A stretch of 37,564 nt of DNA, taken from IMG/VR virus record IMGVR_UViG_2684622670_000021, positions 1 through 37,564 of that record, one strand, 5' to 3'. Origin of the DNA: a virus (Duplodnaviria; Heunggongvirae; Uroviricota; Caudoviricetes). A program made the translations under genes and the position numbers. Positions 1-37,564 of this stretch are shown here, in pieces. How positions within the stretch are numbered: the first letter of the stretch is position 1; each line of letters begins with the position of its first letter. A model generated the notes under the pieces. It saw only the letters and a program-made list of their open reading frames with translations. It was not told where the DNA came from and did no database searches.

Positions 1-1164
1 TTACACATCATTAGTACCTTCCTTATTTTTTGACTGGGACAAATTTGGGACCGATGGGTTCAGGATCGAGTCTATTTGCCGTGCGTGTTCGGTAAGGTGA
101 TTAGGTGCAAGGTGAGCATATCGACGAACCATTTCGATAGACTCCCAGCCTCCCATTTCCTGTAACACTGACAACGGGACTCCGGCTTGAACCAGCCAAC
201 TTGCCCAGGTGTGTCTCAAGTCGTGAAATCTGAAATCATCAATACCAGCCCGTCTCAGCGCCGCTTTCCAGGCTGTGTTTGCGTCATACCGCATCTTCCT
301 GACTGTTGGCGCTTTCGTTCCGTCTGGTTTGGTACAGCTTTCCTTGTACACAAATACCCAACGGTGATGATTCCCGATTTGTTTTTTCAATACGCGACAT
401 GCAGTATCATTCAGCGCAACGCCAATTGCGCGGTTTGATTTACTCTCTTCCGGGTTTATCCATGCCACCCGGCGCTGCATATCTATTTGTTGCCATTCAA
501 GGTTGATGATGTTCGAGCGTCTTAGGCCTGTTGCCAGTGCAAATTCAACAACAGACTTTAATGGCTCCGGACATTCATCAATCAGCCTTTGTGCTTCATG
601 GGGCTCCAGCCAGCGGATCCGTTTATTCTTTGGTTGGGGCACTTTAATAATTGGTGCCTTATCCAGCATTTTCCATTCACGCTCTGCGGCTCTTAGTAGG
701 GCCTTTATAAATGAAAGATGCGTAGCCTTCGTTGCAACGGACGCTGGTTTTGGCGTGTATTCTGGAACAGGTTTCCCTTTTTTTCTGCATGCTTCTGCCC
801 TGAGTTTCCAGTTTTCCTCATGACGCCGGTTCGTCATTTTCTGCATTGCTGAATAAATTTTTGATTCAGTAATGTCTCTTAGTTGCATTCCTGCGAAATG
901 TTGAAGCCAGAATCCGATCCGGCTTTTGTCATCGTCCAGTGATTTTTTATGTGCTTTCTCTTCAAGCCACCTGACACACGCTTCCTCGAACGTTATATCA
1001 GGTATTTCACCAAGTTTGCTGACCCGCCATGCTTCAGCCTTTAGCTTGTCATGGAGTTCTGTCGCCTGCCTTTTGTCCTTTGTTCCAAGAGACTGTTTAA
1101 ATCTTTTACCGTTCGGCAATGTGAAACTGGCGTACCATATTTCACCTCTGCGGAAGAGTGACAT
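1..1164 (-). CDS. int: Tyrosine site-specific integrase (P22-like Int)
   Basis: 387-aa ORF with the C-terminal tyrosine-recombinase signature ([15 protein letters not shown]...VRRYAHL); N-terminus [22 protein letters not shown] matches P22-type Int from memory. Sits at the prophage edge with its 3' end at the window start. Confidence 0.9.
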
Positions 1165-7324: not shown

Positions 7325-8266
7325 ATGAGCACTAAATTAACCGGCTATGTATGGGATGGTTGCGCTGCATCAGGCATGAAATTATCCAGCGTGGCAATTA
7401 TGGCCCGCCTGGCTGATTTCAGTAATGACGAAGGTGTGTGCTGGCCATCAATTGAAACCATTGCCCGCCAGATTGGCGCGGGGATGAGTACCGTCAGAAC
7501 GGCTATCGCACGGCTGGAAGCAGAAGGCTGGTTAACGCGTAAGGCGCGTCGCCAGGGTAACCGCAATGCGTCGAATGTTTATCAGCTTAACGTTGCGAAG
7601 CTTCAGGCAGCGGCATTTTCTCAACTGTCAGATTCTGACCCGTCAAAATCTGACGCATCAAAATCTGACCCGTCAAAATTTGATGCGTCGAAATCTGGCA
7701 AAAAAGCGGGTTTTCACCCGTCAGAATCTGGCGGGGATCCGTCAGTAAAATCAAAACATGATCCGTCAGATAAAAAAACTTCTCGTCCGGACGCTTCGCA
7801 ACCGGACACGCAGACGGATGAACAGGATTTTTTAACTCGCCATCCTGATGCGGTTGTATTCAGCCCTAAAAAGCGCCAGTGGGGAACGCAGGATGATTTG
7901 ACCTGCGCACAGTGGCTCTGGAAAAAAATCATCGCCCTGTACGAGCAGGCCGCCGAATGTGACGGCGAGGTGGTTCGTCCCAAAGAACCGAACTGGACAG
8001 CCTGGGCAAACGAAATTCGCCTGATGTGTGTGCAGGATGGTCGTACTCACAAACAAATCTGCGAGATGTACAGCCGCGTCAGCCGCGATCCGTTCTGGTG
8101 CCGTAACGTGCTCAGCCCGTCGAAGCTGCGGGAAAAATGGGATGAGCTTTCCCTGCGCTTATCGCCGTCCGTAAGCACGTACACCGAAAAACGCGAAGAC
8201 CCGTACTTCAAATCCAGTTACGACAACGTGGACTACAGCCAGATCCCGGCAGGATTCAGGGGGTGA
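7325..8266 (+). CDS. Replication initiation protein (O-like) containing the iteron array
   Basis: 313-aa ORF with an N-terminal winged-helix-like segment, internal iterons encoding SDSDPSKSDASKSDPSKFDASKS, and a C-terminal domain; position corresponds to lambda O. Confidence 0.65.
   Translation: MSTKLTGYVWDGCAASGMKLSSVAIMARLADFSNDEGVCWPSIETIARQIGAGMSTVRTAIARLEAEGWLTRKARRQGNRNASNVYQLNVAKLQAAAFSQLSDSDPSKSDASKSDPSKFDASKSGKKAGFHPSESGGDPSVKSKHDPSDKKTSRPDASQPDTQTDEQDFLTRHPDAVVFSPKKRQWGTQDDLTCAQWLWKKIIALYEQAAECDGEVVRPKEPNWTAWANEIRLMCVQDGRTHKQICEMYSRVSRDPFWCRNVLSPSKLREKWDELSLRLSPSVSTYTEKREDPYFKSSYDNVDYSQIPAGFRG
7626..7731. repeat. Iteron array (candidate replication origin) inside the O-like gene
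   Basis: At least six tandem copies of a ~14-bp unit CCGTCA(A/G)AATCTG(A/G), followed by an A/T-rich stretch at 7745-7785; the same layout as lambda ori within O. Confidence 0.55.
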
Positions 8267-12307: not shown

Positions 12308-12336
12308 ATACGCCCCTGCATGGGGCGTATTATTTA
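12308..12336. terminator. Bidirectional intrinsic terminator between Q and the KAP NTPase gene
   Basis: 9-bp stem ATACGCCCC / GGGGCGTAT with a 5-nt loop, flanked by A/T-rich runs on both sides; lies between two convergent stop codons. Confidence 0.55.
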
Positions 12337-13665
12337 CTGGATGAATGACATTTGATTAATATATTTTATCAATAACTCTCTGGGTGTAGTACTCCAAAAA
12401 TTTATGTGTTCATAATCAGTATAAACATTTGTGAATTTTTTAAGTTCTTCATCACTTTTAGGGGCAAATCGCTCATTAAGAGTAATACTGTCTTTAATTA
12501 TTCCGAAGAATACAATGGATATTTCAGGGATTTGCGATCTTCTCTCATAAGAATAAGGTATTTCTTTTATGTTAAGCAGGTCTGCTAAATAAGATATAGA
12601 TTCAGCGGTAATTTCTTGTTTTAGTTTTTCCTTGTTACCAAAGCAATGTATGAAGGCAGCTACGACAAAGATCATATTTATTAAAGGATTACTGCTTTTG
12701 TTCTCATCGTCGTTTAACAGTTGAAAAATGTTAAGATTGCGTGAAAATGTTTGTGTTTCACGTAATGATAAGTTGGTTCGTTGAATTAAATCACGGATAA
12801 AGCAACCTGATAATCTATTGATTTTATTCAATAAACTTGTTTTTTCTACAAGATAATCCCAATATATAACAGAGGCTTTACATACGTTGTGACCATTTAT
12901 CAAACATGTATCTGGAAGCGTGATGGTATATTTTATAAACTTGTCAAGATATTTTTGTGAGTTAATGCTGTAACCATAAATATGATTTATAGATGCTTTT
13001 AATTGTTCTGTGTTTGTAACTAAAATAAAAAAGACATTATTGATGTCAAAAATGTGTTTTATTGTTTCAATGACATTTGTTGAAAAACTCGGCTTACATC
13101 GGTCTAATTCATCAATTATAATTACGATTTTTTGATTTTTTGATATACTTTCGATGCAGGATTTAAGTGAATTTATGTTTTTCTCTGAGTCCATATGGTC
13201 TTCAAGCAAATTTTCAATAGTCCCATCTATTGCTGCATTGCTTGCTTTCTTCATCGCATCTTGGAATTCTTCGGCAACTTCACTAGCCTCCTGTCGTAAA
13301 AACCAACCTGCACCAGCTTTTAGTACCGTTTTTAAACCAAAGCGAATTGCAGGAAGAGATCTCTTAATGAAGTGTTGTTTTTCTTCCTCAGGCAAAATGC
13401 TGGCAATTGCAGAGGTTATGAGAAGTAATGGAGATTCTGCATGATCCCCTTTAAAGGCATCAATATAAACAACTTTAGATTCAGTTTCTTGCTCAATAAT
13501 GAGATTTTTCAGTTTGATACTAAATTCTGTTTTCCCTGTTCCCCATGCGCCGTCTATTACCAGTGGTGAAATGTCTGCCTCTGGTTTTAGCAACTTGATG
13601 ATATTTTCAGCGATGTTTCTTCGTTGGAACTCGTCACGTTCAGTGAAAGATAGTGTATCTAACAT
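12334..13665 (-). CDS. KAP-family P-loop NTPase (cargo/moron gene)
   Basis: 443-aa ORF with Walker A GAWGTGKT and Walker B followed by the KAP-typical DRC (IVIIIDELDRC); strongly AT-rich; antisense to the late operon. Confidence 0.75.
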   Translation of the reverse strand: MLDTLSFTERDEFQRRNIAENIIKLLKPEADISPLVIDGAWGTGKTEFSIKLKNLIIEQETESKVVYIDAFKGDHAESPLLLITSAIASILPEEEKQHFIKRSLPAIRFGLKTVLKAGAGWFLRQEASEVAEEFQDAMKKASNAAIDGTIENLLEDHMDSEKNINSLKSCIESISKNQKIVIIIDELDRCKPSFSTNVIETIKHIFDINNVFFILVTNTEQLKASINHIYGYSINSQKYLDKFIKYTITLPDTCLINGHNVCKASVIYWDYLVEKTSLLNKINRLSGCFIRDLIQRTNLSLRETQTFSRNLNIFQLLNDDENKSSNPLINMIFVVAAFIHCFGNKEKLKQEITAESISYLADLLNIKEIPYSYERRSQIPEISIVFFGIIKDSITLNERFAPKSDEELKKFTNVYTDYEHINFWSTTPRELLIKYINQMSFIQ

Positions 13666-33552: not shown

Positions 33553-34653
33553 ATGCATCGTATAGACACGAAAACCGCGCAGAAGGATAAGTTCGGCGCG
33601 GGTAAGAACGGTTTTACCCGTGGTAACCCCCAGACCGGCACGCCTGCCACCGATCTGGATGATGACTACTTTGACATGTTGCAGGAAGAACTCTGCAGCG
33701 TGGTGGAGGCATCCGGTGCCAGCCTGGAGAAGGGGCGGCACGATCAGCTTCTTACCGCGCTTCGTGCGCTGCTGTTAAGCCGCAAGAATCCGTTTGGCGA
33801 TATCAAATCGGATGGCACTGTGCAAACGGCTCTCGAAAACCTGGGAATGACAGACATTCTGAATGATAAACAGGATAAAAATGATAATCTGACATCATTG
33901 TCGAGCTTAACAGGAATACCGGATGGGCTGGCATTTTTTACAGGTGCTGGAACAATGGATATGACAGCGCTGACTCAAAATGGTAGGGAAATTTTAAGTA
34001 AAAAAAACGTATCGGAAACTCTACAATATTTAACACTTGGTGATGGAACAGGAAGGCTTTTGGGGGTTCAGGTATTTGGATCATCTGGGACTTATCACAA
34101 ATCACCTGGTGTAACGAAAATTATAGTGGAAGCCGTTGGCGGTGGTGGTGCCAGTGGCAATTTATCAGCAACAGCCTCAAATAACTGTGGTGTAAGTGCT
34201 GCCGGTTCCAACGGGGCATATGCTAAAGCATTTTTTTATCAGTCTATACCTGAATCCGTGCAAGTAACTATTGGAAGCGGTGGTGTAGCAGGAACAGGAC
34301 CAAGAGGCTCTGGAGGTGACGGCGGGAATACAAGCTTTGGTGATTTGCTTGTATGCCCGGGAGGAAGGGGATCAACTCAAGTTCAGCAGGTACCTCCATT
34401 TTCAGGGGGAAGTGCAACAGAAGCACCAATTCCTACAGGGCGAGGGATTCTGTTCCATTCAGTTTCACGATCAAATTTATGTGGGGCACTTGGACTTGGT
34501 GATGATCAGGCGATTGGCGTTGAAAGTATAACCACTACTATGCTTGGGACATACGGTATTGGCGGGACAGGTAAATACAATAAGGCGTCATCAGGCCCAG
34601 CGACAGGAAATAATGGAAATCAGGGATATATTCTTGTGTGGGAGTATCAGTAA
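33553..34653 (+). CDS. Tail fibre protein
   Basis: 366-aa ORF with a conserved-looking N-terminus ([26 protein letters not shown]) and a Gly-rich, lower-GC C-terminal half. Confidence 0.7.
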
Positions 34654-34832
34654 TGAGCGATATTTATGCAGTCGTACAAAATGGTGTCGTTACAAATCTT
34701 GTTGTATGGGATGGTAAGTCAGAGTTTAAGCCAGAAAAAGCGGATATAGTTAAATGTGTTGGAGATGTTGGTATTGGCTGGTCATATGACGGTAAAAAAT
34801 TCATCAAGCCTGAAGATAAAACCGCGCAATAG
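34653..34832 (+). CDS. Small protein downstream of the tail fibre (59 aa)
   Basis: TAATG-coupled to the tail fibre stop with GGAG SD; short, so coding status is tentative. Confidence 0.4.
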   Translation: MSDIYAVVQNGVVTNLVVWDGKSEFKPEKADIVKCVGDVGIGWSYDGKKFIKPEDKTAQ

Positions 34833-34850
34833 CGCGGTTTTATTTATTTT
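34818..34850. terminator. Bidirectional intrinsic terminator between the tail module and the acyltransferase gene
   Basis: AAAACCGCGC-AATA-GCGCGGTTTT with A4 upstream and a T-rich tract downstream; both convergent genes stop within or beside it. Confidence 0.55.
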
Positions 34851-35947
34851 ACTGCTAAAATTCGTTTTCTTAGCATCAGCTCTAAAGGCTCCTCAACTAA
34901 TTTATAAAGTATGATTGAGACTATGGTTATTATAACAAGGAGCGCTATTAAATAGAGTGGTCCGGGGTTATGTCCAAAGATTTTAAAGCAAAATAATATA
35001 ATGGGTTGATGAATTAAATAAAAAATAAATGATGATTTCCCTAATAGCTCTAGGGTTTTTGAACTGAGGATAGTATGAATGACTCCATTTCTTAGATAGA
35101 TGCATGAAGTAAAGAATATTACCATGGGGAGTAAATAATATAACGAATAACGTAGACTATTATTTATGTTGTTGCTATAATATATAGCTATTAGCAGAGG
35201 TAATAGTGAAATTAAAAACAAAAGGCTGTCGGCTGTCGGCTGTCGGCTGTCGGCTGTCGGCTGTCGGCTGTCGGCTGTCGGCTGTCGGCTGTCGGCTGTC
35301 GGCTGTCGGCTGTCGGCTGTCGGCTGTCGGCTGTTTTTCCAGCAAGCGTAAATAATCATGCCGCAAATAAATTCTACCAAGCGGCTTACTGGGAATATAT
35401 AATATAACCAGTGATTAAGTTCTTCTGTTTGTATAATTTTTAAAAAATATATAGTTAATAGTAGAGTTATAATTGATATTGCAGTGATTACTTTCTTTGT
35501 AATTGATGTATAAATCAACGGAATAAACATTAAATAAAAAAACAGCTCATCAGACAAAGACCATGATACACCATTTAATGAGAAGTAGTAATCCTCCTTT
35601 GGTATCCAACTTTGCATTAATAAAATATTTGTTAAGGTTTTTGAAAAATCAAAGTTCTTTAAGTGAATGGTTAGTAAAATAAATGGCATGGCTAATAATA
35701 GATGCATTGGAACAATTCTTGCCAATCTTAAAAGAATAAACTGTCTTTTACTTGTTACTTCATTTTTTAGCTTGTCTTCATATGAATATGAAAGAATGAA
35801 GCCAGATAAAATAAAGAAAAAGGAAACGCCAATAAATCCCTGGGAAAACATTTCTTTTACAAAAACACCAAAATAGTCTGTATTTAAATGGCATAAATAA
35901 ACCATTAATGCAGCTATAAATCTGAGTCCTGTTAAGTGGCGAAGCAT
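34844..35947 (-). CDS. Acyltransferase family 3 integral membrane protein (Oac-like) with in-frame heptapeptide repeat
   Basis: Multi-TM protein with the N-terminal acyltransferase-3 motif (RHLTGLRFIAALMVYLCH); ATG at 35947 preceded by AGAGG (track start at 35977 is TTG); very AT-rich; prophage-terminal position like oac/gtr loci. Confidence 0.75.
   Translation of the reverse strand: MLRHLTGLRFIAALMVYLCHLNTDYFGVFVKEMFSQGFIGVSFFFILSGFILSYSYEDKLKNEVTSKRQFILLRLARIVPMHLLLAMPFILLTIHLKNFDFSKTLTNILLMQSWIPKEDYYFSLNGVSWSLSDELFFYLMFIPLIYTSITKKVITAISIITLLLTIYFLKIIQTEELNHWLYYIFPVSRLVEFICGMIIYACWKNSRQPTADSRQPTADSRQPTADSRQPTADSRQPTADSLLFLISLLPLLIAIYYSNNINNSLRYSLYYLLPMVIFFTSCIYLRNGVIHTILSSKTLELLGKSSFIFYLIHQPIILFCFKIFGHNPGPLYLIALLVIITIVSIILYKLVEEPLELMLRKRILAVK
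35224..35334. repeat. Tandem heptanucleotide repeat (GGCTGTC)x15 plus partial copy, inside the acyltransferase ORF
   Basis: Counted directly: 15 perfect GGCTGTC units (35224-35328) plus GGCTGT. On the coding strand it is (GACAGCC)15 encoding five SRQPTAD heptapeptides. Confidence 0.95.
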
Positions 35948-36682
35948 CAATAACCTCTTGTTATGAAGATAAAGCAATTCAAAAGAGGCATTTTATGACT
36001 GTAGGGGATTGGTGTCTATATGAATGAGTAATCTGGTTTTTAAAATCTTCTTTAATTACAAAATAAACCTTTCTTAGGCTATAGATTTGTGGCTGTAACA
36101 CTGTGTGTCCACGACATTGAGACATCCTTCCGCTTTGCTATAGATGTGGAATTCAGGATCAAGCGATATCGGACTCATCCTCAGCACCACCCGGTTAATC
36201 TGGATAACGGGAGAAGGGAAGCGCTGCCAGAAGATGATGATGGTTACAGTTCTGCACTGGCTATTCTGCACTGGCTATATTCGTGGTGATCACTTACATA
36301 ATTAATGACGCCAGGAATACGGAGTTTGATGATTGCCTGGTGATGTGAGAAAAAACTCATACACACAAAGCTTTGCACTGGATTGCAAGGCTTTGTGCTA
36401 TTCGATAGCACGAGTTTGAATGAAAATCAGCCGTTATCGATTTTACGTATTTTTGTATGAGAGGATTTTTACCTCCTCCCACCGATCCTCCATAACTTTA
36501 CGACACTGTCTCTAGGACTGCTATGTGCCAAGAGCGGAATTTTCTAATATTATGCTGCATTCGTTTAAGGGGAGCAGATCAGCTAACGACTCCTACGTCC
36601 TGGGGAAAGGTCACATATGCTAAACAGCAGCTCAGCAAAGAGAAGAGCGAATTTGGTAACGGGAAACCGTTATGATATGAAT

Positions 36683-36710
36683 AAGGCTCCCAATGGGAGC
36701 CTTATTTTTT
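36683..36710 (+). terminator. Intrinsic terminator
   Basis: AAGGCTCCC-AAT-GGGAGCCTT followed by ATTTTTTGA. Confidence 0.5.
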
Positions 36711-36727
36711 GATAGGGATGATGAATA

Positions 36728-36901
36728 TTATCCGAGGCTTACTGGCTTTACACCTTTCTTCGGCCCGACCATATCCATGTCTTTTTCCTTCTGACCAACT
36801 TTGGCAAGTTTGTTGCCGTCGATGGAAGCCCAGAAGTCGAGAGAGCGTCTTGCACTAGCCATAGCTTTATCAGAAGTGATTTTTTTATGTTGTTTGATCA
36901 T
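36728..36901 (-). CDS. Hypothetical small basic protein (57 aa)
   Basis: ATG preceded by AGAGG at 6-nt spacing; product MIKQHKKITSDKAMASARRSLDFWASIDGNKLAKVGQKEKDMDMVGPKKGVKPVSLG; below the ORF-track length cut-off. Confidence 0.45.
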   Translation of the reverse strand: MIKQHKKITSDKAMASARRSLDFWASIDGNKLAKVGQKEKDMDMVGPKKGVKPVSLG

Positions 36902-36991
36902 GGTTAACCTCTTTGGCTATAGACTTTACGGATAATTTTATAACAAATGCGTTCATTAAACAAACAGCCCATCGACTGCTGATTGAGATTG

Positions 36992-37564
36992 TCATTCTTC
37001 AACTGGGTCAATGCCATTCACTTTCCGTCGTATGGTGTCGAGGATGTCGTGCACATCTGCAGACATCTTACTGTGGTCATGCCATACTTGGGCAAATCCG
37101 TAGCTCCTGTAACGCGGTTGTGCATCTTCAGTAGGATCTTGAATATAAACGTCGTCAAGCTCCGCGATCTGGCAGAAGGTAGTCGCGTAAATAAGTGCGA
37201 TGATCAACACATTGCCTGTTAGGTCGGTATCCTCATCTGAAATGAAGTTTTCTAACATGCAAATTGAGAATTGCTCACGGCGCCAGTCGTATTTACAAAT
37301 GATAACCGCATGAAGCTGTTCGGGCTCATCACGGTCGATCAGCTTTAACGTTATATCCAGTATTCCATCTACAGCGTCACCGCGATAGGTCTGCATCGCC
37401 CATCGCCAGTCCAAGTGGCTTTGTAAACTTGCATCTTCAAGCTGGCGTCTCTCTTCATCGCTCAAAACGCCTACAGAGATATTAGTCCATCCAAGTGATT
37501 CAATAGCTTTTTGTGTTGTTGCTAGACATTGATCATGTATTTGCTGAGTAGATAGGAAGCTCAC
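36992..37564 (-). CDS. Hypothetical acidic protein (at least 190 aa), possibly 5'-truncated by the window edge
   Basis: ORF runs to the last base of the window (first codon GTG); moderate GC, unlike the adjacent AT-rich cargo. No recognisable motif. Confidence 0.5.
   Translation of the reverse strand: MSFLSTQQIHDQCLATTQKAIESLGWTNISVGVLSDEERRQLEDASLQSHLDWRWAMQTYRGDAVDGILDITLKLIDRDEPEQLHAVIICKYDWRREQFSICMLENFISDEDTDLTGNVLIIALIYATTFCQIAELDDVYIQDPTEDAQPRYRSYGFAQVWHDHSKMSADVHDILDTIRRKVNGIDPVEE

Follow-up and report, generated by a model that had tools for sequence, protein, structure and literature searches.

A heptanucleotide repeat inside a prophage-borne acyltransferase gene of Escherichia albertii as a probable ON/OFF switch of the neuO kind

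Results

The DNA analysed here is a stretch of 37,564 nucleotides (IMG/VR record IMGVR_UViG_2684622670_000021), referred to as the window, which corresponds to contig BBVP01000018.1 of the draft assembly GCA_001514785.1. Judging from its gene content, the window is a complete-looking temperate phage with a contractile tail and a Mu-like baseplate, carried as a prophage by Escherichia albertii. Its genes follow the order integrase, CI-like repressor, replication protein, KAP NTPase, terminase, tail sheath, Mu-like baseplate, fibre, a small open reading frame (ORF) of 59 amino acids (aa) and, at the end, a gene of the acyltransferase-3 (AT3) family whose coding sequence contains a long array of a 7-nt unit. 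This gene and its array are the subject of the present work (Table 1).

Tandem Repeats Finder (TRF) described the array as 15.9 copies of GGCTGTC with period 7, 100% matches and a score of 222. The raw sequence agrees, which confirms the 15 perfect copies that a first-pass annotation of this DNA had noticed. Read on the coding (minus) strand, the array is (AGCCGAC)15 plus an incomplete last unit, AGCC. A perfect period-7 run this long has a chance expectation of ~1e-58 anywhere in the window, and no other repeat of the window is comparable to it. The unit is not a multiple of three and lies inside the AT3 reading frame, as is characteristic of contingency loci based on simple sequence repeats (SSR). 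The GC content is 28.9% for the AT3 gene without the repeat and 71% for the repeat itself, compared to 50% for the window and 55-60% for the neighbouring tail genes, in agreement with the AT-rich character initially ascribed to the gene. Translation of the array gives ...CWKN-(SRQPTAD)5-SLLFL..., that is, the heptad product that had been anticipated, with 130 residues C-terminal of the repeat. Plus-strand ORFs across the repeat (35206-35355) and hairpin 'terminators' within the array were also called, and these were taken as by-products of the repeat.

The AT3 gene is read from the minus-strand ORF 34844-35977, in which the ATG at 35947 gives a product of 367 aa that matches exactly WP_059275999.1, an 'acyltransferase family protein' from E. 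albertii in the protein collection. The sole Pfam match of this product is Acyl_transf_3 (PF01757; residues 5-348, E=3.2e-31, 109 bits, cut-off 31), and it also matches PHROG 3333 'O-acetyltransferase' (E=6e-51) and PHROG 6705 (labels 'O-acetyltransferase / O-antigen acetylase'). NCBIfam contains no family model or equivalog for it, and searches of the PDB, by sequence and by Foldseek with an AlphaFold2 (AF2) model, gave no meaningful match and no solved homologue. Functional AT3 domains are defined by an R-X10-H motif in the first transmembrane helix (TMH1) and an RXXR motif in TMH3 (PMC9833829). Both motifs are present in the protein (R9 and H20; R74-L-A-R77) and are invariant or nearly so in an alignment of 76 sequences, in which His313 and Glu352, located C-terminal of the repeat, are also conserved. 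The AF2 model (pLDDT 92, pTM 0.90) contains 10 transmembrane helices and a re-entrant segment between TMH3 and TMH4, and this predicted helix pattern agrees with the published AT3 topology of 10 TMH with the N-terminus inside, which has experimental support (PMC9833829). The Pfam match, the motifs and the AT3-like model all sustain the family assignment that had been made at first sight.

The only poorly predicted stretch of the model covers residues ~208-237, corresponding to the heptads, which form a coil with pLDDT values of 53-66 between TMH6 (186-207) and TMH7 (238-256). This loop is predicted to be disordered and, when placed on the published AT3 topology, cytoplasmic. The hydrophilic heptads thus form a loop in the model, as first proposed, but their predicted cytoplasmic side means that they would not be exposed at the surface, so that the loop itself would be no surface epitope. 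Each SRQPTAD heptad contains one Arg and one Asp and is charge-neutral.

The alleles of the gene were collected from the protein collection and from 18 loci read at the DNA level, all of them in public assemblies. A comparison of copy number across related prophages, as the first-pass annotation had proposed, returned 15 different counts, out-of-frame states included (2, 3, 4, 5, 6, 7, 8, 9, 10, 11, 12, 15, 17, 18 and 23 units), the 23 units being found in one locus and the 18-unit allele (P0134) being known from the protein only. Alleles with 3, 6, 9, 12, 15 and 18 units are in frame and encode proteins of 339, 346, 353, 360, 367 and 374 aa, respectively, a natural in-frame series of one to six heptads. 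All other counts are out of frame: with 4, 7 or 10 units (1 modulo 3) the protein ends in ...QPFVFNFTITSANSYIL, and with 2, 5, 8, 11, 17 or 23 units (2 modulo 3) in ...TAFCF. In these alleles the stop codon lies 5 or 17 codons past the array, after TMH6, and TMH7-10 are lost together with His313 and Glu352. The truncated alleles in the protein collection measure 214-249 aa (2, 4, 5, 7, 8, 10, 11 and 17 units). The proposed rule that only multiples of three give a full-length protein therefore describes the whole census. For the window allele, extrapolation from the 235-, 245- and 249-aa alleles predicts products of 242 aa with 14 units and 259 aa with 16 units.

The commonest allele by far is the imperfect three-unit one, AGCCGAC-AGCAGAC-AGTCGAC-AGCC, which encodes a single heptad (SRQQTVD) and which we consider the ground state. 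One such protein alone is present on 499 contigs, and in each of the seven complete E. coli genomes that carry it the gene encodes the 339-aa form (WP_000943925.1). The loop of the Citrobacter orthologue (KQQSTSG) is equally long and lacks heptamer periodicity, indicating that the three-unit proto-repeat is specific to the Escherichia gene. Each of the three units was found expanded: AGTCGAC in several E. coli lineages (e.g. C-A-T9 arrays), AGCAGAC in others, and AGCCGAC in E. albertii, all of whose observed alleles are pure arrays (4, 6, 7, 12, 15 and 17 units). A 14-nt A-T double unit is expanded in loci L007 and L009. The three unit variants have expanded independently, in different lineages, from the three-unit ground state. 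Moreover, a variant last full unit, TGTCGAC, was observed in loci L004, L008 and L011, in which Gln is replaced by Leu and the heptad becomes SRLSTVD. This unit marks related 8- and 11-unit alleles and could be used for array genealogy.

In the flanks of the array (862 nt upstream and 453 nt downstream) no locus has more than one difference, the comparison of E. coli with E. albertii included, and the length changes consist of whole heptamers only, with clean flanks, in 18 of 18 loci from independent projects. Two E. albertii loci with 7 and 17 units (L012 and L013) have 0 mismatches in 5,934 nt of flank, and their contigs (64,249 and 64,319 bp) differ by exactly 70 bp. Likewise, the 4-unit locus of the complete E. 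albertii genome CP117654.1 (L010) and the 15-unit window have 0 mismatches in 6,232 nt. By these comparisons the array is hypervariable, changing far faster than point mutations accrue.

In addition, resetting the array to a multiple of three in the sequence yields an intact ORF for all 11 loci that are out of frame at the DNA level, although this test has limited power, given how little the loci diverge overall. In these 11 loci we found no other substitution or indel in the AT3 gene, and in the 250 nt upstream of the OFF alleles no other change except for a 1-nt insertion in two of them. The alleles whose unit number is not a multiple of three are therefore otherwise intact and truncated after TMH6, as expected if the gain or loss of units truncates the protein. 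Among the expanded alleles, ~35 contigs are OFF and ~20 are ON (~64% OFF; lower-bound counts, uncorrected for clonality), which matches the two thirds expected from free switching. An apparent second lesion in the OFF allele of L006 was rejected, as the difference is a run of N (an assembly gap) beside the array. The insertion mentioned above, an A carried by the 11-unit OFF alleles L008 and L011, is situated ~20 nt upstream of the start (window position ~35968), between the promoter-like site and the start codon.

Regarding the setting of the gene, the 59-aa ORF sits between the fibre and AT3 genes in every carrier locus and is a 61-aa ORF in Citrobacter, and the hairpin listed in Table 1 lies between the convergent fibre-side ORF and the AT3 gene. 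The DNA common to all carriers ends at ~36400-36408, inside the S24 peptidase gene remnant (similarity stops at query positions 450-459 of 35950-37564), which makes AT3 the last intact prophage gene, one that would adjoin int in the circular phage. Its original description as the last gene before the prophage end was essentially right, only the S24-peptidase pseudogene fragment lying beyond it. A perfect 14-nt direct duplication (TTCTGCACTGGCTA x2.1) was also observed at 36250-36278, inside this S24/UmuD-like remnant, and may be its frameshifting lesion.

Table 1. Features of the AT3 locus and of the prophage ends in the window
Feature	Position	Strand	Evidence and remarks
Integrase	1-1164		Prophage end opposite the AT3 gene
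Tail fibre with glycine-rich C-terminal domain	33553..34653	+	Pfam Gly_rich_2 E=5e-8; PHROG tail-fibre families
Small conserved ORF, 59 aa	34653..34832	+	PHROG 14370 (unknown function) E=8e-28; RefSeq-annotated in relatives
GC-rich hairpin AAAACCGCGC-AATA-GCGCGGTTTT	34814..34845	.	Terminator scan, 14 pairs; candidate bidirectional terminator
AT3-only membrane acyltransferase gene, 367 aa, ON allele	34844..35947	-	ORF, Pfam, PHROG, AF2 model, motifs
Heptanucleotide SSR	35224..35334	-	Encodes (SRQPTAD)5 in the TMH6-TMH7 loop; TRF, unit parsing, 2-23 units in relatives
Promoter-like site TAGACA, 17-nt spacer, TAAAAT	35990..36018	-	Consensus scan 10/12, pattern match only; upstream of AT3
S24 (UmuD/HumD-like) peptidase gene remnant	36144..36408	+	Annotated as 'frameshifted, incomplete' in relatives

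Most of the first 25 kb of the prophage is carried by 89 complete E. coli genomes, and the AT3 gene is present in only seven. In the sole AT3-less relative examined, strain EC19 (L014, NZ_CP182182.1 3960000-3972000), a nearly identical prophage (99% identity along the first 25 kb) has a stfE/tfaE tail-fibre module with the pinE invertase instead of the fibre-AT3 module, so that one phage type accommodates, in a single slot, either DNA inversion or repeat slippage. The trio of fibre tip, small ORF and AT3, which in the window spans 33553-35947 of an e14/Mu-like-baseplate prophage, was also found in a second type of phage, whose capsid is different (L005/L007 4001-5717), and, at 77% protein identity, in a prophage remnant of Citrobacter portucalensis (L019-L021 5001-6853). 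It is the 3' end of the fibre gene that accompanies AT3 into these other backgrounds. The trio thus behaves as a transferable host-range or receptor-modification module, and the joint occurrence of its members suggests that the acetylase and the specificity of the fibre are functionally connected. Near-identical cassette DNA had no match in 50,697 phage records and is known only from prophages in bacterial assemblies, and a peptide-pattern scan of species-representative genomes found no relative. A scan of JGI/ENA metagenomes with a 21-nt flank pattern gave two true copies, both with three units, and four chance matches.

Discussion

In this work we have described a prophage-borne AT3 gene that is probably a repeat-based ON/OFF switch of a surface-glycan O-acyltransferase, mechanistically as neuO. 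The gene would be a cargo gene ('moron') of the prophage encoding an integral-membrane O-acyltransferase, expressed from its own putative promoter convergently to the tail-fibre genes, and the enzyme would most likely acetylate a surface glycan of the lysogen, e.g. the O-antigen. During replication the array may gain or lose units by slipped-strand mispairing. With a count divisible by three (15 in the window) the frame would be kept and SRxxTxD heptads added to the disordered loop (ON), while any other count would cause a frameshift, an early stop and the loss of TMH7-10 (OFF). The outcome would be a heritable and reversible ON/OFF switch located on a mobile element, with the same mechanism as neuO of prophage CUS-3. 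At the population level this hypothesis is strongly supported by the alleles compared here. We further infer that switching within a clone is reversible and occurs at a high rate, that the truncated products are inactive, and that the acceptor is the O-antigen or another surface polysaccharide. MutS-dependent mismatch repair recognises 7-nt loops poorly, which would explain the instability of a 7-nt unit in repair-proficient enterobacteria.

The closest parallel is neuO itself, which O-acetylates the polysialic acid of the E. coli K1 capsule and has been described as a 'mobile contingency locus'. It contains 2-93 AAGACTC units, is ON only at multiples of three, and each set of three units codes for an RLKTQDS heptad, located in a disordered extension at the N-terminus, which also increases activity (PMC3046976, PMC9659370, PMC13001214). 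Both genes are prophage O-acetyltransferase cargo at the tail-fibre/integrase end, both have a coding heptanucleotide repeat that is ON at multiples of three, and in both three units give a hydrophilic heptad in a disordered segment (RLKTQDS in NeuO, SRQPTAD here). Furthermore, natural isolates span many copy numbers in both cases, and the ~64% OFF among our expanded alleles lies near the 65.6% OFF published for neuO on the basis of 64 complete genomes (PMC13001214). In a neuO allele with 21 units, copy-number variants amount to ~7% (93% / 1.9% / 5.4%; PMC13001214). However, NeuO is a soluble left-handed beta-helix of the hexapeptide-repeat type, whereas the protein described here is a 10-TMH AT3 membrane protein with Acyl_transf_3 as its only Pfam match and an all-helical membrane model, and it stands outside the NeuO family. 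The neuO repeat begins 2 nt after the start codon, whereas the present one is in the middle of the gene (codon 205) and its OFF products are stubs of 214-263 aa. CUS-3 is a P22-like phage and not one with a contractile tail and a Mu-like baseplate, most copies of the AT3 gene are at the imperfect three-unit ground state instead of ranging over 2-93 units, and the acceptor is established for NeuO but only inferred for the AT3 protein. Homology between the two repeats was considered by setting the neuO unit and heptad against those of AT3 in the same rotation (SRLKTQD vs SRQQTAD), and it was rejected because the best match, 3-4 of 7 bases, is at chance level.

Several AT3 genes offer further precedents. 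In Salmonella Typhimurium oafA, which encodes an AT3-SGNH protein acting on O:5 abequose, O:5 has been lost repeatedly by deletion of one ATTTTAT unit (PMC9426603). This is again an AT3-family acetyltransferase with a 7-nt coding repeat that is frameshifted by the loss of one unit, recurrently and independently, but the gene is chromosomal, encodes an AT3-SGNH fusion and has few units, with no long arrays reported (PMC9426603), and what has been described there is repeated loss, not an expanding multi-allelic array. The AT3 gene oafA of Haemophilus influenzae, a lipooligosaccharide O-acetylase, is phase-variable by coding tetranucleotide repeats (PMC9558356). It differs in the unit length and in being a chromosomal gene of a small-genome mucosal pathogen with many such loci. 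In Salmonella, the modification genes gtr and oafB vary in phase through Dam methylation (PMC9558356). With regard to phage enzymes, the family link to Oac of phage Sf6 that had been proposed for the gene is supported, and the placement is alike: both are AT3-only and the Sf6 annotation shows, like the window, a tailspike or fibre gene, a terminator and a convergent acetylase adjoining the int/att end. However, Sf6 Oac is only 28% identical over 155 aa (E=1e-4), and no tandem repeat was found in Sf6 oac. The nearest phage relative is the O-acetyltransferase of the TL-2011b / phiV10 type, with 35% identity over 87% of the length. These serotype-converting acetylases (Sf6 Oac and the TL-2011b type) share the PHROG 'O-acetyltransferase' family with the protein described here but are not known as repeat-switched. 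By contrast, the initial suggestion that coding heptanucleotide repeats had not been described in enterobacterial prophage acyltransferases does not hold, since neuO of CUS-3 is a precedent and Salmonella oafA also has a 7-nt repeat.

Some observations weigh against the switch as proposed above. The imperfect three-unit allele accounts for about 90% of the public copies (499+ contigs), is the one found in each of the seven complete E. coli carriers and is probably stable, so that the E. coli locus would be mostly 'locked ON' and its expansion sporadic. A dispensable gene drifting neutrally would likewise reach an OFF fraction near two thirds. The majority of the alleles are from draft assemblies of short reads, in which long arrays can be mis-sized. 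With respect to the acceptor, even the closest phage homologue, the TL-2011b enzyme, is only 35% identical, and Sf6 Oac reaches 28% over 155 aa.

The first two of these points would also fit a hypermutable microsatellite of neutral effect within a dispensable cargo gene, a hotspot of mutation expanded by chance, the OFF alleles being fresh losses of function on their way to decay and the switching not being selected. The expanded alleles are rare and scattered, and several of the carrier prophages are degraded (an IS3 insertion, a truncated stfP, the Citrobacter remnant). This explanation differs from a switch only in the adaptiveness of switching, the molecular events being alike, and we regard it as unlikely, although it is the alternative that best withstands the data. 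In none of the 11 OFF loci does the gene or, leaving aside the single inserted A of L008 and L011, its upstream region contain a further substitution or indel, three unit types have expanded independently at one site, and the pure arrays of E. albertii, with 4-17 units and both ON and OFF states in identical backgrounds, would need many events in a short time. Moreover, the experimentally validated switch of neuO has the same proportion of ON and OFF (PMC13001214).

It has also to be considered that the repeat mainly tunes activity, the number of in-frame heptads grading the activity or stability of the enzyme, as the poly-psi segment of NeuO does, and the frameshifts being a by-product. In-frame alleles with 1, 2, 3, 4, 5 and 6 heptads all exist, the catalytic efficiency of NeuO rises in linear fashion with its heptad count (PMC3046976), and the cytoplasmic face of AT3 proteins, where the loop is predicted to lie, forms the proposed acetyl-CoA entry cavity (PMC9833829). 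Nevertheless, the loop is predicted to be disordered and each heptad is charge-neutral, and the in-frame alleles are not enriched above the chance value of 1/3, so we find tuning as the main role improbable. Tuning is, in any case, compatible with an ON/OFF switch and does not exclude it. Finally, that the long array and its variants are artefacts of short-read assembly of a gene that always has three units is very hard to believe: the window and most expanded alleles do come from draft assemblies and a run of N lies beside the array in L006, but 18 loci from independent projects differ by whole heptamers only and have clean flanks, the complete genome CP117654.1 has a 4-unit pure array, the unit patterns are lineage-specific and not what assemblers invent, and an array of 111 nt falls below the usual length of reads.

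Phase variation by means of repeats is frequently met in Haemophilus, Neisseria and Campylobacter and seldom in E. coli and its relatives, for which neuO is the standard example. Searches of open-access full texts, aimed at the AT3 locus, its repeats and heptanucleotide repeats in acyltransferases or in E. albertii, gave no description of this locus and no experimental work on the AT3 protein. The data make a well-supported case for the AT3 locus as the second heptanucleotide-switched prophage-borne glycan acetyltransferase in Escherichia, this one from the AT3 family, within a mechanism class that has already been described. A second acetyltransferase of this kind from an unrelated enzyme family would show that the design of neuO is no one-off. 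It may be, more tentatively and with the balance of our judgement somewhat against it, that the locus is a second and evolutionarily independent 'mobile contingency locus' in Escherichia, in which the AT3 fold and another phage type have converged on the neuO solution of a tolerated disordered S-R-x-x-T-x-D heptad, with 7-nt repeats as a general route, gating linked to the module and possible tuning by the heptads. If so, 7-nt coding repeats would be a general route to stochastically switchable receptor-modifying cargo in the temperate phages of mismatch-repair-proficient enterobacteria. As AT3, the 59-aa ORF and the glycine-rich fibre tip travel together, the switch may then gate both superinfection exclusion against the fibre type of the phage itself and the visibility of the host to the immune system, and the number of heptads may additionally tune activity.

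There are also some practical consequences. Unstable O-acetylation in E. albertii and in some E. coli, including enterotoxigenic (ETEC) and porcine strains, is likely to originate from the locus, which is of interest for serotyping and vaccines. In such lineages the gene is often annotated as two 'acyltransferase' fragments, which are better read as phase-OFF alleles than as pseudogenes. In addition, the natural series of one to six heptads inserted in the TMH6-7 cytoplasmic loop should be useful for structure-function work on AT3 proteins.

Other features of the prophage

Away from the AT3 locus, a 15-nt unit (TCTGACCCGTCAAAA) is repeated 4.3 times, also readable as a 30-nt unit repeated 2.1 times, at 7634-7697 inside the ORF 7325-8266, whose product has an N-terminal helix-turn-helix domain. 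These repeats look like replication-origin iterons within a lambda-O-like initiator gene. A gene for a 443-aa KAP-family P-loop NTPase (12334-13665, minus strand) is oriented opposite to the surrounding genes, between the early region and the lysis and packaging genes, and is probably a further cargo or defence gene of the prophage. Outside the prophage, in the source contig (L018, 1114-4500), two NleG-like and two OspG-kinase-like type III effector genes were found ~5.5-9 kb past AT3, on the far side of three anaerobic sulfite-reductase-like genes flanking the end of the prophage.

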